A stretch of DNA of 32,000 bases from Candidatus Peribacter riflensis. GTDB taxonomy: Bacteria > Patescibacteriota > Gracilibacteria > Peribacterales > Peribacteraceae. The notes beneath the pieces are model-generated. The model was not told the origin of the DNA and did no database searches. It saw nothing but the letters and a program-made list of their open reading frames with translations. Location: positions 1,216,027 through 1,248,026 of the forward strand of contig CP013062.1 in the NCBI GenBank assembly GCA_001430755.1, given 5' to 3'. The position numbers and the translations under genes were made by a program. Of this stretch, positions 17,005 through 32,000 are shown in pieces. The stretch's first letter is position 1; the number at the start of each line of letters is the position of its first letter.

Positions 17005-20000
17005 ATGGGGATGAGGTTTAGTATTTCTGCCGTGCGTCCGTTTTCCAGCAGGTTTCCCTTCCGGAACTCCGTTCTCGTTGCGGGTTTTCTGTTGGCGGCC
17101 GTGTTCTCCGTCATCGTGCTTCGTTCGTTCGGTGGTCATTCGACCGCAACGCTCGGCGTGAACGACCGTTGCACGAATTTGAGCGGCAACCCTCCTCCCG
17201 GGGGTGTGCAGCTCTATCATCCCTACCAAATGCCGCATGATGTGACGCTGTACAACACCTGCACGACAGAAGAGAACTGTCCGAGTTGTACCGTGAGTCA
17301 ATGTGCCCGTTGCTACGTCGAAGAGTACGTGTGCGGAGGTATCTCGGCCGGGAGTTACTTCAAGAACACTACCGAGTGCAATCTCTGTGAAAACGGCGTG
17401 TGTACCGAGGCCGCCACGAGCTCGTTCGCTTCTGAGGGCGCCGGCCCGGAGCTTCGCCCGACCATCGAGATCGCCGAGCGCACAGGTGAGGTCTACTGTA
17501 ACGCCCCGTACGGCACGAAGTGCTACGACCTGGTATGGACGATTGCCAACGTGGGGCGCACCGAAGAATACGTATCCAGCTTCAATATCAGCACCTCGCC
17601 CGGTCTCCGCTTTTTTGAGACCGTGACCAACTGCAACAGAATGGGTGATGATAACGTCGAGTGTCCGTTTCCCGGTGGCCAGGGCAAGCACTTTCCGGCT
17701 GGTTACAGCGAAACGTGGCGGTTTCCCATCGTCGCAGATGAACCGCCGGCGACCTGTCCGAATTCTATTGCAACTTATTATGCCGCATCGGCTCTGTACG
17801 CAGGGTTCAATGGCGTGAGCTACCTTCAGATTCCCTGTACAGAGTCCGCTTCGTCCTCTTCATCTGATGGGATTCTTCATGGCTGTGTCGATCCGGATGG
17901 CAGTGATTTTTACAGAAAAGTGCGCACAGAAATATACTTCGATGGCGTGCCTGATCCTATAAAAGGCAGGACGGATTCCTGCAATGGGGACCGGGCGATT
18001 GATTACTACTGCGACTCGCCCATACAAAACATGATGTTCGGTCCGTCCCAACAACAACACCTGTGTCCCTATGGTTGTGTGAATGGCGCATGCCAGTGGG
18101 GACCGAATGTCTGCCAGAATGGCGTGATTCCTGTGCAATCGCGTCCCCAATTCATCACTGCCGTCGGATCAAAAGTCTATGTGCTGAACTTCGTCAGCAG
18201 GAGCATCTCGGTCATCAACACAGCGACCAATACCGTGTCCGCTACGATTCCCATGGGGTCCCGTATCGATGCCATCGCAGCCGTCGGGTCGAAGGTGTTT
18301 GTGGCGAATTCCGGGAACTCAACCGTCTCCGTCATCAATGCCGCCATCGATACCGTCATGACCGCCATTCCTATGAGTCCCTATCCAACCGGTTTCGTTG
18401 TCGTTGGAACGAAGCTGTATGTCTTGCAGGGGGGCGAGCCTGTCATCTCCGTCATCAATACCGTCACGAATACCGTGCAATCCACGATCCAGGTGGGGGA
18501 TTTTACCTATGACCTTGCCGCCGTTGGGACGTACGTGTACGCGGCAAATGAAAATCTCGTCATCTCCGTCATCAATACTGCAACCAATACGGTACAGACT
18601 ACGATCCCCATGAGTGCCCGCCCCAACACGCTCATTGCTGCCGGCTCAAAGCTGTACGTGACGCACTGGGATACCGGCATTGTTTCCGTCATCAACACCG
18701 CGACCAATACAGTCGAGGCCACAATCCCCGTGGGGACAAATCCCCGTTCTCTCGCAGTCGCCGGAACGAAGGTGTATGTGGCAAATGTCAGCAGTAACAA
18801 TGTTTCCGTCATCGATACGAACACCAATACCGTGCTCGCCACCATTCCCGTGGGCATGCGACCCTACGCTCTCGCCGTCTCCGGCACGAAGGTGTATGCC
18901 GTGGGGGGTACTGCGGTCACTGTCATCGATACGAACACCAATACCGTGCTCGCCACCATCGCTGCAGGGGCAAATCTTGAGGCCATCGCTGTCTCCGGCA
19001 CGAAGGTGTATGTGGCGGGCAACCACGTCGATGGAAGAGTGTTCGTCGTCGATACCCTGACCGACACTCTGTCGTGCAGCGCCGCAACGGCGGTTTCCTC
19101 TTCATCTGCCTCTCAGTGTCCCACGCCACCTCCTCCTCCTGCCGGATGCGCACTGATCTGCACGAATGGGAATCCCTGTCCGCTGTGTCATGTGCAGTGT
19201 CCCAGCTCCTCCTCAAGTTCGCGTTCTTCCTCCGCCTCAGCGATTCCGGCCGGTTCTTCTTCCAGCGCCGTCGCCAGCTCAGCAGGTCCTTCCTCTGTGT
19301 CTTCCGCCGCCCAGACCTCCCAATCTTCATCCAGCTCTCAGGCTGTGAGTTCGGTGGGTGCCCTCTGCGGCAATCGTGTCATTGAAACCGGTGAGCAGTG
19401 TGATGACGGAAACGTCGTTCCCGGAGACGGGTGCGGCCAAATCTGCCAGCGCGAGGCAGGATGGGTCTGTTCCGGCGTGCCAAGCGTGTGCACCACCGTC
19501 TGCGGCGACGGCATCCGCGCGGGAGTGGAGCAGTGCGACGATGCCAACCTGAACAACGGTGATGGCTGTTCCAGGACCTGTCAGACCGAACAGGGGGTTT
19601 CTTCTACCGCCTCTTCCCAGCCCATTGCTGTCATCTCTTCGTCGGCGGCCTCGGGCGCTCCTACCTGCGGCAACGGACAGCGCGAGGGGAGTGAGCAGTG
19701 CGAAGCGGATGCGGAATGCACCGCAGGGACCATCTGCCGGAGCTGCCGATGTATCGCACCGACACAGCGGTGTGGCAATGGAACGGTGGAAGCTCCCGAG
19801 CAGTGTGATTCAGGACATCCCTGCCCGGATGGCGGCTTCTGCACGGCCACCTGCTCCTGTGTTCCGCGCTCCTCCACTTCGGCCCGCAGCAGCGCTCCTT
19901 CCCCGTCCTGTGGCAACGGCACGCTCAATGACAGCGAGGAGTGTGAAATCAATGCACCGTGTCCCATCCCCGGTTCCGTCTGTGTGAACTGCGTCTGCCG

Positions 20001-20874
20001 TCCACCGGCGGCATCGTGCGGCAATGGGCTGATCGAAGACCAGGAGGAATGTGAGTTCGGTTATTCCTGCAGCGATCAGGGTATCTGTCAGGATTGCCGG
20101 TGCGGCCCCGGCGCAGAGACAACTGCTCTGTTGCAGGCTTCCTCCAGCGTGACGGCCCCCGCCCCTGCGCCCCTGACGCTTCCGCAAATCTGTGGCAATG
20201 CCCTCCTCGAGGGTTCGGAGCAGTGCGAGACGAATGCAGCGTGCCCGCGTCCCGGGGATCTGTGTGTGGATTGTCAGTGTCATAATCCCCCTCAGGCGCG
20301 CTGCGGGAATACGCAATTGGAATTATCGGAAGAGTGCGACGACGGCAATACACAGGATGGCGACGGCTGCTCCGGCCTGTGTCAGCGCGAGACGATCAAT
20401 CTCATTGCCTCTCAGGCCATCTGCGGCAACGGTCTCATCGAGCGGGATGAGGAGTGTGACGACGGCAACACGGTTTCGGAGGATGGATGTTCCGCTGTCT
20501 GCCAGCGCGAAGTTCTGCCACCACGGTTAGAACTCACACTCCTTCCCGAGCAGCCCGCCTCTTCGTCTGTTGCCTTTCAGCCTGTTTCCAGCGCGCCTGC
20601 AGTGACCGTCCCGGTGCGCACCGGTCCTACCCCCAAGAGGGCAGTGTCTTCCGTTCCAGCCTTCTTTCCCGCTGCACCCGTTCCCTCTGCCCTTGCTCCT
20701 TCTATTCTCGCCACAACCATCGTCCAGCCGCCCTCCTGGCAGGCGTATGCTTCCGTCATTCCCTACGCTCCGCCCACAGGCCCCGTTGGTTCCACCGGTC
20801 CGGCCTCTGTCGCCCTAATGGCCGCAGGTGCTGCGGCAGGTCTGGCGTGGATGCGGAGAAAGCGGAAACCATAG
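17005..20874 (+). CDS. Giant surface protein 4 (1289 aa): N-terminal anchor, DUF11/CARDB-like region, CxDxD module, ~8-blade YVTN-type propeller, 9-repeat Cys stalk, spacer, TGP-type C-terminal anchor
   Basis: 3.9 kb ORF. N-terminal VLVAGFLLAAVFSVIVL. Eight ~40 aa repeats of the form VSVINTATNTV.ATIPVG..P..LAV.GTKVYVAN. Stalk repeats. Tail GPVGSTGPASVALMAAGAAAGLAWMRRKRKP. Confidence 0.9.
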   Translation: MGMRFSISAVRPFSSRFPFRNSVLVAGFLLAAVFSVIVLRSFGGHSTATLGVNDRCTNLSGNPPPGGVQLYHPYQMPHDVTLYNTCTTEENCPSCTVSQCARCYVEEYVCGGISAGSYFKNTTECNLCENGVCTEAATSSFASEGAGPELRPTIEIAERTGEVYCNAPYGTKCYDLVWTIANVGRTEEYVSSFNISTSPGLRFFETVTNCNRMGDDNVECPFPGGQGKHFPAGYSETWRFPIVADEPPATCPNSIATYYAASALYAGFNGVSYLQIPCTESASSSSSDGILHGCVDPDGSDFYRKVRTEIYFDGVPDPIKGRTDSCNGDRAIDYYCDSPIQNMMFGPSQQQHLCPYGCVNGACQWGPNVCQNGVIPVQSRPQFITAVGSKVYVLNFVSRSISVINTATNTVSATIPMGSRIDAIAAVGSKVFVANSGNSTVSVINAAIDTVMTAIPMSPYPTGFVVVGTKLYVLQGGEPVISVINTVTNTVQSTIQVGDFTYDLAAVGTYVYAANENLVISVINTATNTVQTTIPMSARPNTLIAAGSKLYVTHWDTGIVSVINTATNTVEATIPVGTNPRSLAVAGTKVYVANVSSNNVSVIDTNTNTVLATIPVGMRPYALAVSGTKVYAVGGTAVTVIDTNTNTVLATIAAGANLEAIAVSGTKVYVAGNHVDGRVFVVDTLTDTLSCSAATAVSSSSASQCPTPPPPPAGCALICTNGNPCPLCHVQCPSSSSSSRSSSASAIPAGSSSSAVASSAGPSSVSSAAQTSQSSSSSQAVSSVGALCGNRVIETGEQCDDGNVVPGDGCGQICQREAGWVCSGVPSVCTTVCGDGIRAGVEQCDDANLNNGDGCSRTCQTEQGVSSTASSQPIAVISSSAASGAPTCGNGQREGSEQCEADAECTAGTICRSCRCIAPTQRCGNGTVEAPEQCDSGHPCPDGGFCTATCSCVPRSSTSARSSAPSPSCGNGTLNDSEECEINAPCPIPGSVCVNCVCRPPAASCGNGLIEDQEECEFGYSCSDQGICQDCRCGPGAETTALLQASSSVTAPAPAPLTLPQICGNALLEGSEQCETNAACPRPGDLCVDCQCHNPPQARCGNTQLELSEECDDGNTQDGDGCSGLCQRETINLIASQAICGNGLIERDEECDDGNTVSEDGCSAVCQREVLPPRLELTLLPEQPASSSVAFQPVSSAPAVTVPVRTGPTPKRAVSSVPAFFPAAPVPSALAPSILATTIVQPPSWQAYASVIPYAPPTGPVGSTGPASVALMAAGAAAGLAWMRRKRKP
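18148..19077 (+). repeat. About eight ~40 aa (~117-120 bp) YVTN-family beta-propeller repeats
   Basis: A recurring core tccgtcatcaa(t/c)ac.gc.accaatac.gt encodes SVINTATNTV at about 18216, 18329, 18449, 18566, 18686, 18806 and 18917. The last two units share an identical ~36 nt stretch, gtcatcgatacgaacaccaataccgtgctcgccaccat. Confidence 0.8.
19366..20511 (+). repeat. Nine-repeat Cys stalk of protein 4, in the order B, B, A, A, A, A, A, B, B
   Basis: The first units are CGNRVIETGEQCDDGNVVPGDGCGQICQRE, CGDGIRAGVEQCDDANLNNGDGCSRTCQTE and CGNGQREGSEQCEADAECTAGTICRSCRC. Later units are CGNALLEGSEQCETNAACPRPGDLCVDCQC, CGNTQLELSEECDDGNTQDGDGCSGLCQRE and CGNGLIERDEECDDGNTVSEDGCSAVCQRE. Confidence 0.85.
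20383..20742 (+). repeat. Copy 1 of a 360 bp block identical to 24940-25299, covering the last type-B repeat and the spacer of proteins 4 and 5
   Basis: The offset is 4557 bp. The flanking mismatches are 20382 t versus 24939 c and 20743 g versus 25300 c. Off-frame ORFs 20487.. and 25044.. begin with the same ~84 aa. Confidence 0.85.
20779..20874 (+). other. Putative C-terminal sorting/anchor signal of protein 4
   Basis: GPVGSTGPASVALMAAGAAAGLAWMRRKRKP followed by the stop. Confidence 0.6.
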
Positions 20875-20892: not shown

Positions 20893-23800
20893 GTGCAACA
20901 AATGGCAAACAGCTCCTTTGAACAGAAAGTGATACGCTCAGCGGGAAATATGCCCGATTTCTTACGGTCCGGAGCGGCGGCGTCTTCTCTGCACAGGCGC
21001 AGAGGCTTTGTGGTGCTGGGGATCGCCGGGGTGGCCGTGCTGGGGTGGATATCTCTGCAGAGTCGGCAATCCATGCACATGTTCACCGCACAGGTGATGG
21101 GCGATACACCCTACTGCGGCAACAATATCCGCGAGACGGGGGAACAGTGCGACAGCGGGTATGCATGGGGCAGAATTGAGGGCTGTGGTATCAATCAGGT
21201 ATGTCAGCGTTGTCAGTGCGTCACGCTCACGTCTGCGAATCAACACTGCATAGGCACGGCATGCTATGCAGGAGTAAATAATTGTCCTTCAGGGACACCG
21301 GCATGCGATGTGACCTGTGCCTGTTCCGCGATCTGGTGGCCACACTGCGGCGATGCACGGTGCATGTCTTTCGAGCAGGGGGCAGGTGGGCGGATCATCC
21401 ATCCTTCGGCAACCGGGCCGATCCAAAACAGAGTGGAGGGCTTCGGCATGGATATCGTTCCCATGGGCGATCTGGATGCGGACCAGATCCCGGACGTCGT
21501 TGTTCTGGCTACCGGGAACGGCACCCCGTTCGTCAGCGGCACGATCCATGTGATCTATATGAATCGCAACGGCACCGCCAAGCGTATTGATCCGCTGCCT
21601 TATGTGCCGGAGCGTCAGGGTCTTGCCCCACTCAAGCTGGCCTACGCAATGGAATCAGTCGGGGATATCGACAGCAACGGCGTTCCCGATCTTGCCCTGT
21701 ATGCGTGGACCGGCACGTATACGGAAGGGGACTATGGCAATGACGAAGAGATACGTATCCTTCGGCTGCAGCGGACGGCGGAAGGGGTTTCCGTTCTTGC
21801 CGACAGGGCAAATCCGGAGCCGCAAGAACAGGCGCGCCAGGGATACGGATACGATCTGGCCTACCTGGGCAATGGCAGACTGGCTGCATATCTGGGGCGA
21901 GGTGACTCCTTCGACGAGGCGGTTGGCATTTTCCAGATTTCATCGAATGGAAACATTGCGCAGATCGGCACCGTTCAAGGAGTCTCCGGTGGGAATGTGC
22001 TTGGTGCGCCCGGCGATCTCAATGGAGACGGCGCAAATGATCTCCTGTGGAATCGGACGGTGGCTTTTCTCTCGCAGGACGGGACATCGGTCTTGTCGCA
22101 GCAGACAATCGCCTTCGGGAGCCCGTACTTCAATGATGGATTTATTCATTCGAATCCCTGGGGGGACACGGATGGGAACGGAGTCCCGGATCTGCTCCTC
22201 GGTATGGTGAGTCAGCAGGGCAAGTACGAGAATATCGGTATCGTGGGAAAGGTATTGCTCGAGCGTACTTCGGGCAATCCGCCCCTCCGGGTGAAATCCT
22301 CTCAGATCATGTATTCCCCCGAACAACCTGCGCGTTTCGGCGGAGCTTTTGGAAGGGCCGCGGCGAACGTGGGCGATATCGACGGTGACGGACAGCCGGA
22401 TATCATGATCGGCTCGCCCGAAACATTCTTCTGCGTCGATGGCACGCAAGTGCATGGATGCTCCGGCACGCATCCCGGTGCTGTTTGGGTGTACCTCTCC
22501 GGCGCCGGTGTTCCGATCTGCACTGCAGACTGCGGCTCCGCACCAATTTCTCCATCTTCGTCTTCTGCTCCGATTCCCCCATCTTCGTCTTCTGTTCCGA
22601 TTCCCCCATCTTCGTCTTCTGTTCCGATCATTCCGAGCTCCTCTTCGCAGGCGGCTGTCTGTGGGGACGGGCGCTTCGCAGCGACCAAGCAGTGCGAGCC
22701 ATCAGGCATGCTGCAGACTTTGCCTACGAACGGTATCCCCGATGCGGTCCGGGCGGGCGACTTCAACGCAGACGGCAACGCGGATCTGGTCACGCTGAAT
22801 CTAAGCCCCAATCGAACCGGCAGCATCAATGTCTTTCTCGGCGCGGGGGACGGCAGTTTCAGCCCCGGAGCGAATTATCAAGTTGGCAATGTGCAATCCG
22901 TCTTCCAGGCCGCCGATGCGCAGGGCGACGGCAAGTTAGACCTTTTGCTGGGGGCAACACACATCATGAGAGGCAATGGAGATGGCACGTTCCAGCCTGT
23001 ATCATCCCTGCTGCCGCAAGGCGCTGATGTCGCTGTAGGCGATTTTAACGAAGACGGCCGTCCCGATATCTTCACCACCACCGTATCCTCGCCCAACTCT
23101 CCGCATGTGGAGCAGCTCTTCGCAGGTCAGGCCGGGGGAGGCTTCGCCGCCGGCGTCACCGTCGCGGAGTTTCCGCACCCTTGGAGCAATATCGTCACGG
23201 CAGACTTTGACGCGGATGGCCACCTCGATGTCGCGTACCTGCCGACCGGTAATTCCAATGACCCACCGGGGCTCACCGCCAATTTCACGGTGCAGATACT
23301 CTACGGCAACGGGAACGGCGCCTTCATCTCGGTACCATTGACGCTCAGCAGTTGGACGAGCGGCGCCACCGGTCTGTGGATGGCGGATATCAACGGGGAT
23401 GGACGCAGCGATCTTTACATGGATGGCAACGGCAACGTGGGGCCATTTTGGCTCAACAACGGCAACCGCACGTTTGAAGCAAAGAACAATTATATGGGGA
23501 ATCTGAATGACCCCGCTGCGCTCATCGATGTCGATGGCGACGGCAAGGCCGATGTCATCACCGGCGGCCGTACCGCCTCGCCCACCATTGAGATCCACAA
23601 AGGCAATGGCGATGGCTCCTTTGTCCAATCACCCCTGTATTCCTTTGGAGTCACGTACCCGCTCTGGCACTCAGAAGGGAATATCGCCCAGGCGGACTTC
23701 GATCATGACGGTAGGCTGGACTTCGCCATCGCCCGGACAAGCATCGCCGATGCGGGGGCGAACTTCATCATCGTGCAGATCAGCCCCTGCGCTCCCGGAC

Positions 23801-25434
23801 AGACCTGCAGCAGTTCCTGCCAGTGCATCGGTACGCCCATTCCGCCCAGCTCGTCCTCCCGTTCTTCTTCGCGCTCCTCATCTTCTACTTCACACTCCTC
23901 CTCCGCATCTTCCGTCTCGAGCATGACCATTGCATCGTCGAGCGCGTCGCACGGTGTCAACGCGCTCTGCGGCAACGGTCTGCAGGAGGGCACCGAGCAG
24001 TGCGAAGCAGGCATTCCCTGTTACACGGGCCTCGTCTGCATGAATTGCCTGTGCATCTTCCCGCCCTCCTCATCTGCGGCGCCTCCCTCCTCCACATCTT
24101 CCGACGGCTTTGCTCAGGTCACCTGCGGCAATAGCACGTTGGAGGAGTATGAACAGTGCGAGCAGGGATTCGACTTCTGCCCGCCCGATTTTCTCTGTGA
24201 CTACACTTCGTGCTTCTGTCTGCCATCCGGGATGTTCTCGAGTGCGTCCTCTGCGGGGGTGTCTGTCGGCAGCCAGCCCCTCTGTGGCAACGGCGTTCTG
24301 GAAGTCACAGAGCAGTGCGATACGGGGAATCCGTGCCCCGGCGGGGATTTCTGCACTATTGCGTGCATGTGTGAATCACGCGGGGGGCCTGTACCCGTCG
24401 CACCTTCCACTGTCGTGCGCTGCGGCGATGGAATTCTCGGAGCAGGGGAACAGTGTGAATCCGGCATGCCCTGCAGTGACGGCGCCTTCTGCACCACATC
24501 CTGCCTCTGCCTCCGGAGTGAAACGGTCTCCCTCTGTGGCAACGGCGTGCTTAACCTCCGTGAGGAGTGCGACGACGGCAACACCGAGAATGGTGACGGC
24601 TGTGACCGGTCCTGCCGGAGAGAGGCTGCCGTTTTTGCACAGACCTGCGGTAACGGAGAACTGGAAGGAGGGGAACAGTGCGAGTTGAACAGTCTCTGCC
24701 CCCGTCCGGGGGACCAGTGCCTGAATTGCCAGTGCCGTGCCGTGTCGGAGTCGGCCTGCGGCAATGGGGTTCTCGAATTCCCCGAGGAGTGCGAGACCAC
24801 AGCCGCGTGTGCGGGTCTCTCGCACTTCTGTGCCAGTTGCCGCTGTGTCCCGTTTGTCTGCGGCGACAATGTCCGCGATCTCGGCGAGGAGTGTGACGAC
24901 GGCAACACGGCATCCGGCGACGGCTGCTCTGCCACCTGCCAGCGCGAGACGATCAATCTCATTGCCTCTCAGGCCATCTGCGGCAACGGTCTCATCGAGC
25001 GGGATGAGGAGTGTGACGACGGCAACACGGTTTCGGAGGATGGATGTTCCGCTGTCTGCCAGCGCGAAGTTCTGCCACCACGGTTAGAACTCACACTCCT
25101 TCCCGAGCAGCCCGCCTCTTCGTCTGTTGCCTTTCAGCCTGTTTCCAGCGCGCCTGCAGTGACCGTCCCGGTGCGCACCGGTCCTACCCCCAAGAGGGCA
25201 GTGTCTTCCGTTCCAGCCTTCTTTCCCGCTGCACCCGTTCCCTCTGCCCTTGCTCCTTCTATTCTCGCCACAACCATCGTCCAGCCGCCCTCCTGGCAGC
25301 CATATGCTTCCGTCGTTCCCTACGCTCCGCCCACGGGCCCCGTGGGTGCCACCGGTCCAGCCTCTGTCGCGGCGATGGCCGCAGGTGCAGCGGCGGGGTG
25401 GGCGTGGATGCGACGGAGAAAGAACAGGCGGTAG
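20893..25434 (+). CDS. Giant surface protein 5 (1513 aa), paralog of protein 2: FG-GAP propeller, nested FNADG-type propeller, 11 Cys-rich repeats, spacer, TGP-type C-terminal anchor
   Basis: 4.5 kb ORF. The start is uncertain (GTG 20893, ATG 20902 or ATG 20950), and all lie before the helix GFVVLGIAGVAVLGWI. GDLDADQIPDVVV, GDIDSNGVPDLAL and GDIDGDGQPDIMIG loops. Tail GPVGATGPASVAAMAAGAAAGWAWMRRRKNRR. Confidence 0.9.
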   Translation: MQQMANSSFEQKVIRSAGNMPDFLRSGAAASSLHRRRGFVVLGIAGVAVLGWISLQSRQSMHMFTAQVMGDTPYCGNNIRETGEQCDSGYAWGRIEGCGINQVCQRCQCVTLTSANQHCIGTACYAGVNNCPSGTPACDVTCACSAIWWPHCGDARCMSFEQGAGGRIIHPSATGPIQNRVEGFGMDIVPMGDLDADQIPDVVVLATGNGTPFVSGTIHVIYMNRNGTAKRIDPLPYVPERQGLAPLKLAYAMESVGDIDSNGVPDLALYAWTGTYTEGDYGNDEEIRILRLQRTAEGVSVLADRANPEPQEQARQGYGYDLAYLGNGRLAAYLGRGDSFDEAVGIFQISSNGNIAQIGTVQGVSGGNVLGAPGDLNGDGANDLLWNRTVAFLSQDGTSVLSQQTIAFGSPYFNDGFIHSNPWGDTDGNGVPDLLLGMVSQQGKYENIGIVGKVLLERTSGNPPLRVKSSQIMYSPEQPARFGGAFGRAAANVGDIDGDGQPDIMIGSPETFFCVDGTQVHGCSGTHPGAVWVYLSGAGVPICTADCGSAPISPSSSSAPIPPSSSSVPIPPSSSSVPIIPSSSSQAAVCGDGRFAATKQCEPSGMLQTLPTNGIPDAVRAGDFNADGNADLVTLNLSPNRTGSINVFLGAGDGSFSPGANYQVGNVQSVFQAADAQGDGKLDLLLGATHIMRGNGDGTFQPVSSLLPQGADVAVGDFNEDGRPDIFTTTVSSPNSPHVEQLFAGQAGGGFAAGVTVAEFPHPWSNIVTADFDADGHLDVAYLPTGNSNDPPGLTANFTVQILYGNGNGAFISVPLTLSSWTSGATGLWMADINGDGRSDLYMDGNGNVGPFWLNNGNRTFEAKNNYMGNLNDPAALIDVDGDGKADVITGGRTASPTIEIHKGNGDGSFVQSPLYSFGVTYPLWHSEGNIAQADFDHDGRLDFAIARTSIADAGANFIIVQISPCAPGQTCSSSCQCIGTPIPPSSSSRSSSRSSSSTSHSSSASSVSSMTIASSSASHGVNALCGNGLQEGTEQCEAGIPCYTGLVCMNCLCIFPPSSSAAPPSSTSSDGFAQVTCGNSTLEEYEQCEQGFDFCPPDFLCDYTSCFCLPSGMFSSASSAGVSVGSQPLCGNGVLEVTEQCDTGNPCPGGDFCTIACMCESRGGPVPVAPSTVVRCGDGILGAGEQCESGMPCSDGAFCTTSCLCLRSETVSLCGNGVLNLREECDDGNTENGDGCDRSCRREAAVFAQTCGNGELEGGEQCELNSLCPRPGDQCLNCQCRAVSESACGNGVLEFPEECETTAACAGLSHFCASCRCVPFVCGDNVRDLGEECDDGNTASGDGCSATCQRETINLIASQAICGNGLIERDEECDDGNTVSEDGCSAVCQREVLPPRLELTLLPEQPASSSVAFQPVSSAPAVTVPVRTGPTPKRAVSSVPAFFPAAPVPSALAPSILATTIVQPPSWQPYASVVPYAPPTGPVGATGPASVAAMAAGAAAGWAWMRRRKNRR
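21345..22533 (+). repeat. FG-GAP-type propeller of protein 5, bracketed by Cys half-motifs
   Basis: CGDARCMSFEQG lies upstream. Loops GDLDADQIPDVVV, GDIDSNGVPDLAL, GDLNGDGANDLLW, GDTDGNGVPDLLLG and GDIDGDGQPDIMIG. The downstream flank is ICTADCGS. Confidence 0.7.
22540..22647 (+). repeat. 27-bp x 4 in-frame tandem repeat encoding (A/V)PI(S/P/I)PSSSS
   Basis: The peptide is APISPSSSS APIPPSSSS VPIPPSSSS VPIIPSSSS. The unit ccgattcccccatcttcgtcttctgtt occurs twice without change. Confidence 0.9.
22660..23826 (+). other. Type-A Cys repeat split by an inserted FNADG/VCBS-like beta-propeller (protein 5), the counterpart of 8828-10027
   Basis: First half CGDGRFAATKQCEPS starts at 22660. Insert with FNADGNADLV, AQGDGKLDLL, FNEDGRPDIF, FDADGHLDVA, INGDGRSDLY, VDGDGKADVI and FDHDGRLDFA. 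Second half SPCAPGQTCSSSCQC ends at 23826. Confidence 0.75.
23968..25068 (+). repeat. Nine-repeat C-terminal Cys stalk of protein 5 (types A and B mixed)
   Basis: Includes CGNGLQEGTEQCEAGIPCYTGLVCMNCLC, CGNGVLEVTEQCDTGNPCPGGDFCTIACMC, CGNGVLNLREECDDGNTENGDGCDRSCRRE, CGNGELEGGEQCELNSLCPRPGDQCLNCQC, CGDNVRDLGEECDDGNTASGDGCSATCQRE and CGNGLIERDEECDDGNTVSEDGCSAVCQRE. Confidence 0.85.
24940..25299 (+). repeat. Copy 2 of the 360 bp identical block (matches 20383-20742)
   Basis: The evidence is the same as for copy 1. Confidence 0.85.
25336..25434 (+). other. Putative C-terminal sorting/anchor signal of protein 5
   Basis: GPVGATGPASVAAMAAGAAAGWAWMRRRKNRR followed by the stop. Confidence 0.6.
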
Positions 25435-25515
25435 AACGTGCGATCATTGGTTACTGATCAGAACAACACTGTGTCAATCAGGCAGCGGCAGCGGTTGTTG
25501 CTACACTCCAATGCA

Positions 25516-28500
25516 ATGATCAGCATGTTACGGCGTCTTCTCGGGAGCAGCGGCAAGCTTCTGGCGGTAGTGCTGGGGATTGTTCTTACTGTGACGATTT
25601 TCAATCGTTCTTCACTCCGCATTCCCTGGCTGGCGCAGGAGATGCCTGCGGATCCATGGGGTCTGGCGTGCGGTGGTACCTCGTTCTGCAATGAGTTTTC
25701 TTGGTGGTCGTTCACCTGTAATCCGGCGGCCAAATGTTGCGCAAAGCGTAATGGGGCATACGTTCAGGTTGTCGCGTGTGAGAATGTGAGCCCATCTGTC
25801 ACTCTTCCCGCGCACGGGTGGTGTGACTCTCCTGCACAGGTGGGGGATCTTTGCTACGACCCTGCTTCATGCACGTACGGAACGTGCGTTGAGTATGCTG
25901 GCCCATACTACCTCGAATGCAATCTTGCGGGCGGGGGGTACTGTCCCGAGGGCACCGGTTGTGACACGACGGGTGGTTGTGTTCTCTCCACTCCTTTCTG
26001 CGAAACAGACAGCGACTGCAACGATGGTAATTTACAGACGGTAGATACGTGTTCTGTCGGGGAGTGTAGCAATGTTCCAGGGGCCTATCCCGCCTCCTCA
26101 TCCACTCCGCCTCCTCCACCACCTCCCTCATCCTCCTCGGCTCCGGGAGGCTGCGCGTGCCCCCCCAATCCTGTCCCCGGCTGTGATCCTTTTGGTTGCC
26201 TCAATGGTCCTCCGCTTCCGGCTTTCTGTGTGTTAGTCGGCACGCCAGTCTTCAATCCTACAACCTGCGCAAACGAGTGCACCGGTTGCGATATGGAATG
26301 CGATACGGTCTATCCGCCTACTCCTTCTTCCGTCGCTCCCATCACGCTCCCTTGTGGCGGCGGGTCGGTGAGCGCTTCGACCAATGTCTTCGTGCAGGGG
26401 TCTGGAGGATGCAACTTCGCCGTCAGTACAACATTGACAGGATCACCCCACGGTTCCATCGCCTCGCCGCCAGGTGCCTCCCTGTATTGTCCTGGAGATA
26501 CGGTGACGATTGGCATGTCCTTCTCCTCGGCGGGAACCTACACGCTCGAGACCTGTTCAGAGTTCGATACCGCCTACTACGAGATGCAGGTCGACTATTA
26601 CTGCCAGCAAGAGACATGCGCCAACGGAATCTGGGGGCCAACGATTCCGGATCTCTGTACGCCGACACCAGGGGGAGGAAGCTGGTCAACGCCCTTCACG
26701 AATACGCCCCAATGCTCTCCACTGACCATTACGGTGAATGCGGCTACGGGCTGCTCCTCGGGCGGGAGCGGGGGCTCATCCGGCGGGTCGGGCGGTTCTT
26801 CGGGAGGGTCGGGTGGCTCTTCCGGTGGTTCCGGCGGATCGAGCAGCCATGCCTTCAGCAGCAGCTCCGGCGGCGGGAGCAGCGGAGTCAGCTCCGCAGG
26901 GGCCAGTAGCAGTTCACGGAGCAGTAGCTTCTCCGGTGTGAGCAGTATGGGCAGTTCGGCGAGTAGCACGCAGAGCCATTCCTCCAGTATCCCCATCCAG
27001 AGCTCTTCCGGCTCTGTTCCCTCGTCATACTCCTCCGGCATTTCCATTCAGAGTTCCGTCGGCACATCCTCTTTCAGATCTCTCGCGTCCTCGCGGTCAT
27101 CCTCCTCTTCCACGGGCTACTGCGGCAACGGGGTGCTTGATCCCATAGAAGACAGCCAGTGCGAGCCGAGTATCGGGTACGATAAGTGCTTTTTCTACGG
27201 TTTTGTCTGCGATGTGAGTACCTGCCGTTGTACGCCCTCCAGCACGAGCAGCAGTTACTCCTCCTCTTCCTGCCCGGGCGACCTCTGTAGCGGCCCGTAC
27301 GATCCCAACGGCGATGAGATCTGCGCTTCAATAGGTCTTTCCTGTGAGGAGCTCTCCGAACCTCCCTGCGCACGCTGCATCGGCGGATCTTCCTCCTCCA
27401 TCATCGTGCAGAGCAGCGCGACTTCCACCTCCTCCACCTCCTCCACCCTCTGCCCCGGCGATCTCTGCTCCGGCCCGTACGATCCCAACGGCGACAGTGT
27501 CTGCGCCTCGTATGGCCTTCTCTGTGAGGAGCTCTCCGAACCTCCCTGCGCACGCTGCATCGGCGGATCCTCCTCCTCCATCATCATCGTGCAGAGCAGT
27601 GCTACTTCCACCTCTTCCTCCCCCACCTCTCCGGGTTGCGGCAACGGCCTGCTCGATGCCGGCGAAGAGTGTGACGACAGTAACTGGAATGACGGCGACG
27701 GCTGCGATGATCTCTGCCGCATCGAGACAGGCCCGTGGTGCGGCAATGATGTGCTCGACCTGGGCGAACAGTGTGACGATGGTAACTGGGATGACGGCGA
27801 CGGCTGCAGCCGCTTCTGCCGAGATGAAGCCACGTTGGCTCCCCGCTGTGGTGACGGCTTCCTCGATCCCGGGGAGGAGTGCGACGACGGAAACCCCCGG
27901 AACGGTGACTACTGTTCCGTCCTCTGCCGTTGGGAGGGTCTCGAGCGGTGTGCCAACAACATCATCGAACCGCCCGAACAGTGTGATGACGGGAACACGC
28001 GTGACGGCGACGGCTGCAGCCGCTTCTGCCGCACAGAGCAGATTCTCGGCGGCCCGCTCTGCGGTGACGGCCTGCTCGATCCCGGCGAAGAGTGCGACGA
28101 CGGCAACACCGGCCCGGAGGACGGCTGCGACGCCTGGTGCCGCTGGGAGGGCTTCAACCGCTGCGGCAACCACATTCTCGAATGGGGCGAACAGTGCGAC
28201 GACGGCAACCTTTTCAACAGCGACGGCTGTTCCACCCTCTGCCAGCGGGAGCAGACCGCACCACTCTCTTCCTGCGGCGACGGGCGGAGGGCGAAGACCG
28301 AGCAGTGTGACGATGGCAATCCCCTCGACGGAGATGGCTGTGATCGCGGCTGCCGCATCGAATCCTTCTCCGCCGCCGCCGCCCTTCTCTGCGGCGACGG
28401 CCTGCGCGATGTCGGAGAGGAGTGTGATGATGGCAACCTCTCTAACGGTGACGGCTGCTCCTCACACTGTCTCTTCGAGCAGGGCCGTTGCGGCGACTCC

Positions 28501-29049
28501 ACTGTCCAGCGTGCATTGGGTGAACAGTGCGAACCTTCCCTCCACAACGCCTCTCTGCCGTACGGCTGCACCTCCACCTGTCGCTTCCTCCACCGTGAGT
28601 GCGGCAATGGCATTCCCAATCTGGGTGAGGAGTGTGACAGCGGCCCCCTCAATTCCAATCTGCCCGATGCCCCCTGCCGTCCCGATTGCTCCCTGCCCCA
28701 CTGCGGCGACATCGTCCTCGACCCGGTCGAGTTCTGCGATGATGGCAACCTGCTGGGCGGCGATGGCTGTGACGAATACTGCCGCCGGGAGGGAGGCTTG
28801 ATCACGCAGAGATCCTCTGCTGCTTCCACCTTTCCGTCGCTGCGGCCCGCTGCACCCGATGTCCGCGCACCAGCCCAGCCGCATGCGCCCCTCTTCGCCA
28901 CCCTGCAGACCTTCGAGCCCTGGAGGAGGGGATCCACCGTACGCGTGCCCACCCACGCTCCCGCCGGTGAGACCGGCCCTGCGAGCATGGCCGTGATGGC
29001 TGCCGGTGCTGCAGCAGGTCTGGCGTGGATGCGGAGGAAACGAAGTTGA
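25516..29049 (+). CDS. Giant surface protein 6 (~1177 aa): unique Cys-rich head, Gly/Ser and Ser-rich tracts, 2 CPGDLCSGPYDPNGD modules, 1 type-A-like and 11 mostly type-B Cys repeats, spacer, ETGP-type C-terminal anchor
   Basis: The ORF is open from GTG 25438. I prefer ATG 25516 because it yields a canonical signal peptide, MISMLRRLLGSSGKLLAVVLGIVLTVTIF. Repeats of the form CGDG.LDPGEECDDGN...GDGC...C..E. Tail AGETGPASMAVMAAGAAAGLAWMRRKRS. Confidence 0.85.
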   Translation: MISMLRRLLGSSGKLLAVVLGIVLTVTIFNRSSLRIPWLAQEMPADPWGLACGGTSFCNEFSWWSFTCNPAAKCCAKRNGAYVQVVACENVSPSVTLPAHGWCDSPAQVGDLCYDPASCTYGTCVEYAGPYYLECNLAGGGYCPEGTGCDTTGGCVLSTPFCETDSDCNDGNLQTVDTCSVGECSNVPGAYPASSSTPPPPPPPSSSSAPGGCACPPNPVPGCDPFGCLNGPPLPAFCVLVGTPVFNPTTCANECTGCDMECDTVYPPTPSSVAPITLPCGGGSVSASTNVFVQGSGGCNFAVSTTLTGSPHGSIASPPGASLYCPGDTVTIGMSFSSAGTYTLETCSEFDTAYYEMQVDYYCQQETCANGIWGPTIPDLCTPTPGGGSWSTPFTNTPQCSPLTITVNAATGCSSGGSGGSSGGSGGSSGGSGGSSGGSGGSSSHAFSSSSGGGSSGVSSAGASSSSRSSSFSGVSSMGSSASSTQSHSSSIPIQSSSGSVPSSYSSGISIQSSVGTSSFRSLASSRSSSSSTGYCGNGVLDPIEDSQCEPSIGYDKCFFYGFVCDVSTCRCTPSSTSSSYSSSSCPGDLCSGPYDPNGDEICASIGLSCEELSEPPCARCIGGSSSSIIVQSSATSTSSTSSTLCPGDLCSGPYDPNGDSVCASYGLLCEELSEPPCARCIGGSSSSIIIVQSSATSTSSSPTSPGCGNGLLDAGEECDDSNWNDGDGCDDLCRIETGPWCGNDVLDLGEQCDDGNWDDGDGCSRFCRDEATLAPRCGDGFLDPGEECDDGNPRNGDYCSVLCRWEGLERCANNIIEPPEQCDDGNTRDGDGCSRFCRTEQILGGPLCGDGLLDPGEECDDGNTGPEDGCDAWCRWEGFNRCGNHILEWGEQCDDGNLFNSDGCSTLCQREQTAPLSSCGDGRRAKTEQCDDGNPLDGDGCDRGCRIESFSAAAALLCGDGLRDVGEECDDGNLSNGDGCSSHCLFEQGRCGDSTVQRALGEQCEPSLHNASLPYGCTSTCRFLHRECGNGIPNLGEECDSGPLNSNLPDAPCRPDCSLPHCGDIVLDPVEFCDDGNLLGGDGCDEYCRREGGLITQRSSAASTFPSLRPAAPDVRAPAQPHAPLFATLQTFEPWRRGSTVRVPTHAPAGETGPASMAVMAAGAAAGLAWMRRKRS
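26761..26844 (+). repeat. (GGSGGSS) x 4, a perfect peptide repeat encoded with different synonymous codons in each unit
   Basis: The four units are ggc ggg agc ggg ggc tca tcc / ggc ggg tcg ggc ggt tct tcg / gga ggg tcg ggt ggc tct tcc / ggt ggt tcc ggc gga tcg agc. Confidence 0.9.
27271..27558 (+). repeat. Two copies, 180 bp apart, of a 36 aa five-Cys module CPGDLCSGPYDPNGD..CAS.GL.CEELSEPPCARC, each followed by GGSSSSII(I)VQSSATSTSS
   Basis: The copies lie at 27271-27378 and 27451-27558. They share long identical nucleotide runs, e.g. tgtgaggagctctccgaacctccctgcgcacgctgcatcggcggatc. Confidence 0.85.
27637..28791 (+). repeat. Eleven tandem Cys repeats, mostly type B (DUF4215/TIGR02232-like), forming the stalk of protein 6
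   Basis: Includes CGNGLLDAGEECDDSNWNDGDGCDDLCRIE, CGNDVLDLGEQCDDGNWDDGDGCSRFCRDE, CGDGFLDPGEECDDGNPRNGDYCSVLCRWE and CGDIVLDPVEFCDDGNLLGGDGCDEYCRRE. Confidence 0.85.
27838..28742 (+). repeat. Copy 1 of a ~905 bp block that appears base-identical to 30780-31684
   Basis: By-eye alignment at an offset of 2942 bp finds the first mismatch at 28743 (t) versus 31685 (c). Off-frame ORFs in the supplied track are identical between copies, e.g. 28092-28310 equals 31034-31252, and the minus-strand ORFs share long identical stretches. Confidence 0.85.
28963..29049 (+). other. Putative C-terminal sorting/anchor signal of protein 6
   Basis: AGETGPASMAVMAAGAAAGLAWMRRKRS followed by the stop. Confidence 0.6.
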
Positions 29050-29126
29050 GCAGAAGAACAAATGCTGGGCTCTGCAAGATTGCGTATCGCTCTTGGCCAT
29101 TTCTCGCGTGGTAGAGTTGGCTGGAT

Positions 29127-31991
29127 ATGAAACTGCGTCTTGTCCCACTGGAGGGTAAAACAGCGAGAGGTGCGATAGCGATCATTGTCATATGTTCGAT
29201 GGCATTCTTTGTCTCCCTCCTCGATTCATCTGCCATTCGTTCGGTGTGGAGGCGGGCCCAGGTGCCGGGGGCACTTCCTACCGCCTGCTGCGGTTTCAAT
29301 AATTGCGGGTGCATTGCGGAGAACGTGACGATGGAAGACTGTCTCACCATGGGTGGGTACTCGCTCCAGTCGGGCTTTGACTGCGGGGCCTGCACCCCCA
29401 TCGGTGTCGGGGATTGCACCTATTGTGAGGCATCGTTCGCCCCGGTCTGTGGCGGATTCTGTCCGGGTGGCCAGAGGTGCCTGCCCGGTTTTGGTTGTGA
29501 TGCTTCGGATCCTACGTTATGCGCAGAATACTGCGAATGTTCTCCAATCGATCCAGGTTCCTCGTCGAGCGTTCAGAGTTCCAGTGTATCCTCTTCCAGC
29601 TTCCGTTCCTCATCCAGTTCGCAGACTTCCTGCGCCCCTACGGGTGGCGGTTGCCCCAGTGGATTCTCGTGCACTCTCAGTTTGCAGAGTGATTGCACGT
29701 GTGCAGCGATGACGTGTTCAGACCCTGATGATTGTTGTTTTGAAACAGGAGGGTCATGTGATGCCGGATTGTGTGGGGTGGGTTCGTGTGTCAGACAGGT
29801 GCCCTGCGGGTTTCCTTCCAGCGATTCCTCATCAAGCAGCACCGTCTCATCTGGTTTTTCAAGCACCAGCAGCATCCTCCCGTCCAGTTCCTCTGCGGGC
29901 GGCGTTGCTTCATCCAGCTCCCTTGGCATTTCTTCGAGCAGCGCTCTCCCTTCCAGCTCTTCGGCAGCCAGCAGCAGTGTGACAAGTAATCAGAGCTCCT
30001 CCAGCACACAGAGCAGCAGCGCTTCGAGTGTGAGCAGTAGCCGGAGCAGTCATGCTCTCAGTTCGACATCCAGTCTGAGCAGCTCCGCAAGCAGCGGGCA
30101 GAGCCTTTCCTCCAGCATTCCCATCCAGAGCTCCACCGGTCCCGTTCCCTCGTCCTACTCCTCTAGTATTTCCATCCAGAGCTCCACCGGCACATCCTCC
30201 AGGAGTTCCTCCCGCTCCTCTTCCTCCTCCTCCTCGGCAGGGACGTCGATGCGGTCCAGCTCTTCTTCTTCTGTGCACTGCGATGCCTGTACGCTCGGGG
30301 GCGGGTGCGCGTTGTGCGGCGGAGCCGGTGAAGTCTGTGCGGTGCTCACGGATGGCGGCACGTTTGGCGGTGGAGGGTACGAATGTTTCAATCTTCCGGG
30401 CAATCATCCGGAATTTACGATCTGCGACTGCGGCGGATCATTCTCTTCCGCTTCCTCCTCTGTTCCTGTCTGCCCCGGCGATCTCTGCTCCGGCCCGTAC
30501 GATCCCAACGGCGACGATGTCTGCGCCTCGTATGACCTGATCTGCGAGGAGCTCTCAGAACCTCCCTGCGCACGCTGCATCGGCGGATCCTTCTCCTCCA
30601 TCATCGTGCAGAGCAGCGCTGCTTCTGCCAACTGTCCCGGCGATCTCTGCTCCGGCCCGTACGATCCCAACGGCGATACGGTCTGCGCCTCGAATGGCCT
30701 TCTCTGTGAGGAGCTCTCCGAACCTCCCTGCGCACGCTGCGTCGAGACATCTGCCTCTTCTTCCAGTACCTCCTCTATCGCTCCCCGCTGTGGTGACGGC
30801 TTCCTCGATCCCGGGGAGGAGTGCGACGACGGAAACCCCCGGAACGGTGACTACTGTTCCGTCCTCTGCCGTTGGGAGGGTCTCGAGCGGTGTGCCAACA
30901 ACATCATCGAACCGCCCGAACAGTGTGATGACGGGAACACGCGTGACGGCGACGGCTGCAGCCGCTTCTGCCGCACAGAGCAGATTCTCGGCGGCCCGCT
31001 CTGCGGTGACGGCCTGCTCGATCCCGGCGAAGAGTGCGACGACGGCAACACCGGCCCGGAGGACGGCTGCGACGCCTGGTGCCGCTGGGAGGGCTTCAAC
31101 CGCTGCGGCAACCACATTCTCGAATGGGGCGAACAGTGCGACGACGGCAACCTTTTCAACAGCGACGGCTGTTCCACCCTCTGCCAGCGGGAGCAGACCG
31201 CACCACTCTCTTCCTGCGGCGACGGGCGGAGGGCGAAGACCGAGCAGTGTGACGATGGCAATCCCCTCGACGGAGATGGCTGTGATCGCGGCTGCCGCAT
31301 CGAATCCTTCTCCGCCGCCGCCGCCCTTCTCTGCGGCGACGGCCTGCGCGATGTCGGAGAGGAGTGTGATGATGGCAACCTCTCTAACGGTGACGGCTGC
31401 TCCTCACACTGTCTCTTCGAGCAGGGCCGTTGCGGCGACTCCACTGTCCAGCGTGCATTGGGTGAACAGTGCGAACCTTCCCTCCACAACGCCTCTCTGC
31501 CGTACGGCTGCACCTCCACCTGTCGCTTCCTCCACCGTGAGTGCGGCAATGGCATTCCCAATCTGGGTGAGGAGTGTGACAGCGGCCCCCTCAATTCCAA
31601 TCTGCCCGATGCCCCCTGCCGTCCCGATTGCTCCCTGCCCCACTGCGGCGACATCGTCCTCGACCCGGTCGAGTTCTGCGATGACGGCAACCTGCTGAGA
31701 GGGGATGGCTGCGACGAGTACTGCCGGCGCGAGAGCGACCTGTTCCCCCAGTATTCTTCCACTTCCTCCCTCCCCTCCCTGCGACCGGCGGCATCCCTCA
31801 CCCGCACGTCCGATCAAGCCCATCCGCCCCTCTTCGCCACCCTGCAGACCTTCGAGCCCTGGAGGAGGGGATCCACCGTACGCGTCCCCACCCACGCTCC
31901 CGCCGGTGAGACCGGCCCCGCTGCTATGGCCGTGATGGCTGCCGGTGCTGCGGCAGGTCTGGCGTGGATGCGGAGGCGCAGAAAACCGTAA
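29127..31991 (+). CDS. Giant surface protein 7 (954 aa), paralog of protein 6: unique Cys-rich head, ~150 aa Ser-rich tract, 2 CPGDLCSGPYDPNGD modules, 9 mostly type-B Cys repeats, spacer, ETGP-type C-terminal anchor
   Basis: 2.9 kb ORF from ATG 29127. N-terminal helix GAIAIIVICSMAFFVSLL. The 3' 1.2 kb is nearly identical to protein 6. Tail AGETGPAAMAVMAAGAAAGLAWMRRRRKP, with TAA stop at 31989-31991. Confidence 0.9.
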   Translation: MKLRLVPLEGKTARGAIAIIVICSMAFFVSLLDSSAIRSVWRRAQVPGALPTACCGFNNCGCIAENVTMEDCLTMGGYSLQSGFDCGACTPIGVGDCTYCEASFAPVCGGFCPGGQRCLPGFGCDASDPTLCAEYCECSPIDPGSSSSVQSSSVSSSSFRSSSSSQTSCAPTGGGCPSGFSCTLSLQSDCTCAAMTCSDPDDCCFETGGSCDAGLCGVGSCVRQVPCGFPSSDSSSSSTVSSGFSSTSSILPSSSSAGGVASSSSLGISSSSALPSSSSAASSSVTSNQSSSSTQSSSASSVSSSRSSHALSSTSSLSSSASSGQSLSSSIPIQSSTGPVPSSYSSSISIQSSTGTSSRSSSRSSSSSSSAGTSMRSSSSSSVHCDACTLGGGCALCGGAGEVCAVLTDGGTFGGGGYECFNLPGNHPEFTICDCGGSFSSASSSVPVCPGDLCSGPYDPNGDDVCASYDLICEELSEPPCARCIGGSFSSIIVQSSAASANCPGDLCSGPYDPNGDTVCASNGLLCEELSEPPCARCVETSASSSSTSSIAPRCGDGFLDPGEECDDGNPRNGDYCSVLCRWEGLERCANNIIEPPEQCDDGNTRDGDGCSRFCRTEQILGGPLCGDGLLDPGEECDDGNTGPEDGCDAWCRWEGFNRCGNHILEWGEQCDDGNLFNSDGCSTLCQREQTAPLSSCGDGRRAKTEQCDDGNPLDGDGCDRGCRIESFSAAAALLCGDGLRDVGEECDDGNLSNGDGCSSHCLFEQGRCGDSTVQRALGEQCEPSLHNASLPYGCTSTCRFLHRECGNGIPNLGEECDSGPLNSNLPDAPCRPDCSLPHCGDIVLDPVEFCDDGNLLRGDGCDEYCRRESDLFPQYSSTSSLPSLRPAASLTRTSDQAHPPLFATLQTFEPWRRGSTVRVPTHAPAGETGPAAMAVMAAGAAAGLAWMRRRRKP
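30471..30740 (+). repeat. Two further copies of the CPGDLCSGPYDPNGD..CAS..L.CEELSEPPCARC module (protein 7)
   Basis: The copies lie at 30471-30578 and 30633-30740. They carry the same peptide core as 27271-27558. Confidence 0.85.
30780..31684 (+). repeat. Copy 2 of the ~905 bp identical block (matches 27838-28742)
   Basis: The evidence is the same as for copy 1. Confidence 0.85.
30789..31733 (+). repeat. Nine tandem Cys repeats forming the stalk of protein 7, almost base-identical to the last nine repeats of protein 6
   Basis: From CGDGFLDPGEECDDGNPRNGDYCSVLCRWE to CGDIVLDPVEFCDDGNLLRGDGCDEYCRRE. The offset to protein 6 is 2942 bp. Confidence 0.85.
31902..31991 (+). other. Putative C-terminal sorting/anchor signal of protein 7
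   Basis: AGETGPAAMAVMAAGAAAGLAWMRRRRKP followed by the stop. Confidence 0.6.
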
Positions 31992-32000
31992 GAGACAGCC

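Follow-up and report, generated by a model that had tools for sequence, protein, structure and literature searches.

In Candidatus Peribacter riflensis, an ultra-small bacterium of groundwater, the final 32 kb of the closed, single-contig genome RIFOXYA2_FULL_PER-ii_58_14 (G000; 1,248,026 bp), which we call the window, carries seven co-oriented genes with large products of 954-2104 amino acids. We found that the last two, genes 6 and 7, share a block of 905 bp base for base in the part of each gene that encodes a cysteine-rich repeat stalk. Comparison of the block with its flanks and with the same genes in other strains indicates that it arose by recent gene conversion between the two genes, a reading to which we give a probability of roughly 0.8. 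The features on which this reading depends are as follows.

25438..29049, + strand: gene 6, predicted Cys-rich surface protein
29127..31991, + strand: gene 7, paralogue of gene 6, 954 amino acids
27838..28742, + strand: block copy 1, in the gene 6 stalk, with 8.5 DUF4215/TIGR02232 repeats
30780..31684, + strand: block copy 2, in the gene 7 stalk, an exact 905-bp match
27635..27837, + strand: two extra CDDGN-type Cys repeats found only in gene 6, directly upstream of the block, forming the heterology at its left edge
28743..29049, + strand: gene 6 tail, the apparently unconverted right flank, with the end of the last repeat, spacer and putative anchor signal; ~82% identity to the gene 7 tail
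31685..31991, + strand: gene 7 tail, the apparently unconverted right flank of copy 2

Positions 27838-28742 and 30780-31684 agree at 905 of 905 positions with an offset of 2942, exactly as an earlier sequence-only reading of the window had described them together with their flanks. The bases immediately outside the block differ between the copies at both ends, and within it an exact alignment that looked for scattered mismatches at the level of the flanks found none. Whole-genome BLAST detected only these two copies, and self-comparison at an identity of at least 85% turned up no repeat longer than the block. Both genes read the block in the same codon alignment, from APRCGDG to PVEFCDD. It contains nine repeat starts with the last repeat cut, and thus the eight and a half cysteine repeats, ending in PVEFCDD, that had been read from the sequence. 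The first mismatch beyond the block is a synonymous GAT/GAC.

The perfect identity of the block stands against clear divergence beside it. Downstream, genes 6 and 7 can be aligned to their ends at about 82-83% identity, with 51 mismatches over 295 bp in a gapped alignment. Among 100 aligned tail codons 39 differ (19 by synonymous changes only, 20 by non-synonymous ones), compared with 301 identical codons out of 301 in the block. Upstream, each gene has two CPGDLCSGPYDPNGD modules that are 82-92% identical between the genes, and overall the homologous flanks of the block are 8-18% diverged. The copies had been described as staying similar while diverging downstream and as differing strongly upstream, with distinct heads and two additional repeats in gene 6; both descriptions hold, and opposite the two extra repeats (27635-27837) gene 7 carries a Ser linker. 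At 8% divergence, 905 bp without a single difference would be expected with a probability of about 1e-33, and even 1% divergence would give only 1e-4. For all 51 differences to be confined to the final 295 of the 1200 aligned bases, the probability is about 1e-31. Chance is therefore excluded.

How does the block vary among strains? At the DNA level the stalk is only 64-68% identical to those of congeners (species representatives of the genus), which indicates that it is not slow-evolving and, at this distance, makes these representatives unusable for dating the conversion. Contigs from other assemblies provide a closer comparison. Relative to the G000 copy, the block differs by 2 synonymous single-nucleotide polymorphisms (SNPs) in contigs L022 and L023, by 3 in L024 and by 6 in L030, and one protein-level assembly has several amino-acid changes in it. 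Thus, paralogues in one genome differ at 0 of 905 positions, whereas alleles among strains differ at 2-6 of 905. Paralogues that are more alike than the alleles of co-occurring strains are the signature of concerted evolution, and because identity within the genome exceeds identity between strains, selection is excluded as the cause of the identity.

The block is accompanied by a second, shorter tract in the neighbouring gene pair.

20383..20742, + strand: 360-bp tract, gene 4 copy
24940..25299, + strand: 360-bp tract, gene 5 copy

These two stretches are identical over 360 bp with diverged homologous sequence on both sides, and the head of gene 4 (YVTN) is unrelated to that of gene 5 (FG-GAP). 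The existence of this separate tract suggests that the process recurs in the array. Taken with the diverged flanks, the pattern of concerted evolution and the presence of recA and ruvB, it supports the earlier proposal of a recent gene conversion that would have homogenised the stalk while the heads stayed distinct. That proposal had named conversion or unequal crossing-over as the cause. Conversion stands, but a single unequal crossing-over does not, since it would give a deletion or fusion and not two identical tracts. We therefore use conversion as the label for the identity and unequal recombination as the label for its consequence. Elsewhere in the genome, outside the window, the next most similar long repeat is a 236-bp direct repeat (C1:89138-89373 and 90601-90836) whose copies lie 1463 bp apart and are 99.2% identical, with 2 mismatches.

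Several points weigh against gene conversion. In its classical, two-ended form, conversion requires homologous sequence to the left and to the right of the tract, but homology fails at the left edge, where the block abuts non-homologous sequence in an abrupt break with no gradient. The two copies give no means of telling donor from recipient. A few real differences between the copies could have been masked by short-read consensus, as the repeat is about as long as the insert and coverage was 14x. Finally, contigs in which genes 6 and 7 are fused, described below, could be assembly collapses in which junction k-mers were lost by chance at low coverage.

Could the identity itself be a product of assembly or curation? 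On this account the copies were merely similar and were made identical by short-read consensus (IDBA-UD with manual gap filling), or one was pasted. The history of the genome gives the idea some substance. Its authors (Anantharaman et al. 2016, PeerJ 4:e1607; PMC4736985) reported a single direct repeat whose length was close to the insert size; the path through it was chosen by hand, and an alternative path would drop about 3 kb. According to them, paired reads place this ~3-kb segment; the RIFOXYA2 genome had 14x coverage, and gaps were filled from other samples (PMC4736985). No repeat in the genome is longer than the 905-bp block, and an assembly that took the other path would lack 2942 bp; the block is therefore the repeat of that paper. 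The prediction that it would be a hotspot for assembly collapse was thus well founded, as the genome authors had to choose a path there (PMC4736985). Moreover, automatic assemblies vary or fail at both this repeat and that of genes 4 and 5.

Independent assemblies nevertheless make an artefact unlikely. The exact 1177-aa product of gene 6 and a 580-aa product of gene 7, both of which contain the block, are each found on five NCBI contigs of >1 Mb and are identical in these five separately assembled genomes; one of them, CP013064.1, is identical to the window in DNA across 16.5 kb except for one SNP at 24801. Contigs from assemblies outside these five curated genomes cross every junction of the two-copy layout and match the block.

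Junction from gene 6 into the block: L022, L023 and L024
Junction from the block into the gene 6 tail: L024
Junction from the gene 6 tail, spacer and gene 7 head into the block: L030 (100% identical over 28767-31495) and Plass protein-level assemblies
Junction from the block into the gene 7 tail: L022 and L023

Since the block flanks the unique segment 28743-30779 at each end, two copies are required. A copy created by the assembler was looked for in these independent assemblies and was not found; all four junctions are present, and the block in L022 and L023 differs from that of G000 by the two synonymous SNPs alone. In addition, the 360-bp tract of genes 4 and 5, which is short enough to be spanned by read pairs, shows the same pattern.

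The main biological rival to conversion is a replacement or insertion of the module with one illegitimate end. The right end would have joined by homology and the left end by an illegitimate in-frame event, or the DNA would have come from another strain. The left boundary is what recommends this explanation, as homology ends there abruptly and the upstream sequence shows neither homology nor microhomology; near-identical blocks also occur in other contexts, with one CPGDLC module fewer in L024 and a different downstream neighbour in L030. The position of the boundary argues the other way. Protein homology of two congeners, G005 and G008, to genes 6 and 7 starts within 2-4 residues of the block start, and a module of ~400 amino acids comprising stalk, spacer and tail is kept in G001, G005, G006 and G008 at 54-72% amino-acid identity. 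The two extra repeats of gene 6 are also present in the congener protein G001_Y and in the single G006 gene. From these comparisons, the left edge of the tract is an old boundary of the shared stalk-tail module rather than an arbitrary point, and gene 7 probably already had the module there. Strand exchange that stalled at the heterology would explain the edge without an illegitimate join, and the right edge is situated within ordinary homology, into which the tract grades. We therefore consider replacement quite unlikely.

Extreme purifying selection on the stalk or a very recent duplication of the whole gene is very unlikely: the stalk is indeed rich in Cys and under structural constraint, but no synonymous site differs over 301 codons, whereas the equally constrained CPGDLC modules and tails differ synonymously and strains differ synonymously inside the block itself, and heads that cannot be aligned together with tails that are 18% diverged mark genes 6 and 7 as old paralogues. 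A template/variable repeat pair of a diversity-generating retroelement was also rejected, because the copies are identical rather than adenine-mutated and the block is far too long; a Pfam scan of the array proteins found no reverse-transcriptase domain.

How might gene conversion have produced the observed tract? Sortase A, recA and the Ruv pathway have been reported for Ca. Peribacter riflensis (PMC4736985), and our profile search of the genome recovered RecA (451 bits) and RuvB (247 bits). The same closed genome, 98% complete by marker genes, had no match to MutS domain V (PF00488) or to the MutL DNA_mis_repair domain (PF01119), profiles that matched in 11 of 14 reference genomes used as controls. 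We propose that genes 6 and 7 previously both carried the ancient ~400-aa module (DUF4215 stalk, spacer and anchor tail) under unrelated heads, that the two copies were about 10-18% diverged in DNA, and that one then served as template to overwrite the other. On the left, the overwriting would begin where the shared module begins and homology gives out; on the right, it would stop at no particular landmark, 300 bp short of the stop codon. RecA/RuvAB strand exchange may have stalled at the large heterology on the left and so set the left edge. A heteroduplex that went uncorrected without MutS and MutL would leave a single clean contiguous tract, and the lack of mismatch repair would also lower the barrier to recombination between sequences that are 10-18% diverged. 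Once formed, the perfect direct repeat would in turn expose the locus to RecA-dependent loss of 2942 bp, by which the gene 7 head would disappear and the gene 6 head would be joined, in frame, to the tail of gene 7.

The corresponding form occurs in public assemblies, as had been predicted when the locus was named as a hotspot for deletion or expansion of the ~2.9 kb between the copies. Two MEGAHIT contigs from different ENA analyses, L022 (93 kb) and L023 (5.8 kb), enter gene 6 from the end of gene 5, cross the block and pass directly and in frame into the tail of gene 7, and they lack the following unit.

28743..31684, + strand: 2942-bp unit missing from L022 and L023, comprising the gene 6 tail, a 77-bp spacer, the gene 7 head and block copy 2

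Both contigs cross the circular junction from window position 32000 to genome position 1, L022 with 100% identity over 9991 bp, and they confirm the circular closure of the published genome. L022 and L023 start exactly 141 and 79 nt before the first base after the gene 4/5 tract, and these starts are unitig ends at the gene 4/5 repeat for k = 141 and k = 79. The contigs do not break at the 905-bp block, and they have SNPs of their own at 27408, 28602 and 28626. On these three grounds we lean towards a real haplotype that lacks the 2942-bp segment or has it only rarely. If MEGAHIT had left the segment as a unitig of its own, a 148-aa gene 6 tail fragment would be predicted from it; an exact look-up of this predicted product returned no match.

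Genes 4 and 5 are fused in a JGI contig (L027, 604 kb) that is 100% identical to G000, switches from gene 4 to gene 5 within the 360-bp tract and is shorter by 4557 bp. Here an assembly collapse is at least as likely as a real deletion, because there are no distinguishing SNPs. Two further contigs have mosaic forms. L030 switches inside the block from G000 sequence to an allele like that of L024 and then continues into DNA absent from G000; either the mosaic is genuine, or the contig is a chimera from an assembly of 4x coverage. Downstream of its gene 7-like gene, a gene of >1155 amino acids lies on the opposite strand (L030:3229-7515). This gene has no DNA match in G000 and is matched in several congeners at 66-75% identity, and its presence would mean either that the neighbouring gene differs in this strain or that the contig is a low-coverage chimera. 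L024 (ENA ERZ28563687 scaffold_41273) carries an allele of the gene 6 type that has only one CPGDLC module where gene 6 has two. The divergence of this allele from G000 is itself mosaic, at 2.2% upstream, 0.3% in the block and strong in the last ~70 bp of the anchor tail, a distribution that points to recombination among alleles.

The remaining genes of the array lie upstream of genes 6 and 7.

2076-5723: gene 1
5720-12034: gene 2
12092-16879: gene 3
17005-20874: gene 4
20893-25434: gene 5

The heads of the array proteins vary and consist of RCC1 repeats, FG-GAP propellers, a YVTN propeller or Cys-rich domains without a match. After the head come Ser-rich linkers and then a stalk of cysteine-rich acidic TIGR02232 / PF13948 (DUF4215) repeats. 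Six of the seven proteins end in a spacer, a P-x-G-x-T-G-P tail, a hydrophobic stretch and RRKR, with the tail motif HAPAGETGP in genes 6 and 7 and GPVG[SA]TGP in genes 2-5. The gene 6 protein has an N-terminal membrane or signal segment, a Cys-rich head, Gly/Ser and Ser-rich linkers and two of the CPGDLCSGPYDPNGD modules, followed by the DUF4215 stalk, the spacer and the tail of PAGETGP, hydrophobic segment and RRKR. Gene 7 has a Cys-rich head unrelated to that of gene 6, a long Ser-rich tract and two CPGDLC modules; in its C-terminal part it repeats the stalk module of gene 6 and adds a related tail. The TIGR02232 profile scored 304.6 bits in gene 6 and 260.6 bits in gene 7 (cut-off 20.8), and the PF13948 profile 153.1 and 132 bits (cut-off 27); the profiles matched 9 repeats in gene 6 and 7 in gene 7. 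A sequence search of the PDB with the stalk-tail module matched no solved structure.

Three genes in the genome have sortase-domain (PF04203) matches above the cut-off. The LPXTG pentapeptide is absent from the array tails, which have P-x-G-x-T-G-P instead, and NCBIfam and Pfam anchor models found no match in the array proteins. Genes 6 and 7 probably encode large Cys-rich surface proteins that are anchored by sortase. Cys-rich exported proteins have been described in this organism, and their variation among strains was reported as the main source of genotypic variety (PMC4736985). Within the ~82%-identical tails of genes 6 and 7 there is an exact run of 61 bp (28886-28946 and 31825-31885), for which chance would predict about 20 bp (P roughly 6e-4). 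It covers the conserved ...LFATLQTFEPWRRGSTVRVP... stretch ahead of the anchor motif and could be either a constrained element or a small patch left by an earlier conversion.

Annotation of the two genes is uneven. The start of gene 6 on record is probably the ATG at 25516, which gives 1177 amino acids, and in the MEGAHIT contigs the gene is called from internal starts only. The gene 7 open reading frame (29127-31991) is intact, and the sibling genome CP013064.1 annotates three products of 51, 72 and 580 amino acids in its place, apparently as a result of gene calling that fails across the long Ser-rich tract. An exact look-up of the 954-aa product found no record, because public annotation splits gene 7.

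Is the stalk homogenised in other species of the genus? The assembly of one congener, G001, breaks here: contig C42 stops within the CPGDLC modules of a gene, and contig C21 starts in the tail of a gene, of which it holds the last 131 bp (1-131). This tail and that of the next gene agree at 92% of positions and throughout the first 37 nt, and the stalk of this next gene occurs a single time in the G001 assembly. The contig breaks and the single stalk imply that the stalk of the upstream gene was left unassembled, as expected if it were nearly identical to that of its neighbour, and the assembled sequence thus suggests a homogenised stalk in a second species as well. G006 has only one gene at the equivalent place. 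The heads are mostly unalignable across species, and the gene pairs of G000 and G001, orthologous or not, are therefore compatible both with independent duplication and with concerted evolution throughout the genus. A metagenome scan with the gene 7 head gave a single distant match, L011, with 72% identity in the CPGDLC module, among records from which near-identical ones may have been excluded.

Concerted evolution among bacterial paralogues is known from babA/babB in Helicobacter pylori, opa in Neisseria and tufA/tufB in E. coli and Salmonella. Genes 6 and 7 resemble these systems in having a contiguous tract of identity beside diverged flanks, with the variable functional ends kept distinct. 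By analogy, the process here would likewise depend on RecA, and the repeat would likewise be a substrate for deletions and chimeras. In contrast to those systems, the genes here are adjacent, in the same orientation and in a 1.25-Mb genome of the Candidate Phyla Radiation (CPR) without detectable MutS or MutL, and the converted part would be the structural stalk rather than the binding head. In their architecture the proteins are similar to LPXTG/sortase-anchored adhesins of Gram-positive bacteria (MSCRAMM, Sdr and Rib-type), which share the order of head, Ser-rich linker, repeat stalk, spacer and a motif with hydrophobic helix and basic tail, and also the presence of sortases in the genome (three here). 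Unlike those adhesins, they have the P-x-G-x-T-G-P motif and are unmatched by anchor models, and their anchoring is predicted from sequence. The TIGR02232 family (myxo_disulf_rpt; PF13948) is defined by sequence; here its repeats would form the stalk under variable heads, with a lineage-specific anchor tail.

The bare existence of the repeat was already known as an assembly problem (PMC4736985). The genome paper describes the same feature purely in those terms and gives no host genes, contrast between perfect identity and diverged flanks, second tract, fused forms or evolutionary reading (PMC4736985). New in our analysis are the placement of the block in the stalks of two adjacent adhesin-like genes, its identity set against the divergence of flanks and strains, the second tract shared by genes 4 and 5, a genome without detectable mismatch repair, and the fused and mosaic forms in public assemblies. 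In the literature library that was searched, no paper linked Peribacter with gene conversion.

What does the block mean for Ca. Peribacter riflensis? For general biology it adds little, because tandem paralogues of adhesin-like type are already well known to undergo conversion; the block is one more case of ordinary concerted evolution, and its interest is modest. For this organism, our findings indicate that genes for Cys-rich surface proteins are actively recombining, and that the structural variants, if real, remove a whole head domain, that of gene 7 or of gene 5. The locus is also mis-assembled or broken in automatic metagenome assemblies of Ca. Peribacter riflensis and a congener, and therefore gene catalogues hold chimeric or truncated versions of these proteins. 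More tentatively, and as an idea that we think rather unlikely, the seven-gene array could be a recombination-driven system of cell-surface variation in a CPR symbiont. The stalk-tail modules, kept identical by frequent conversion without mismatch repair, would then act as portable homology through which heads could be deleted, swapped or exchanged among co-occurring strains, and one population would hold the full array, the 6-7 fusion, the 4-5 fusion and mosaics of the L024 and L030 type. If this were true, the repertoires of heads might match different host cells.

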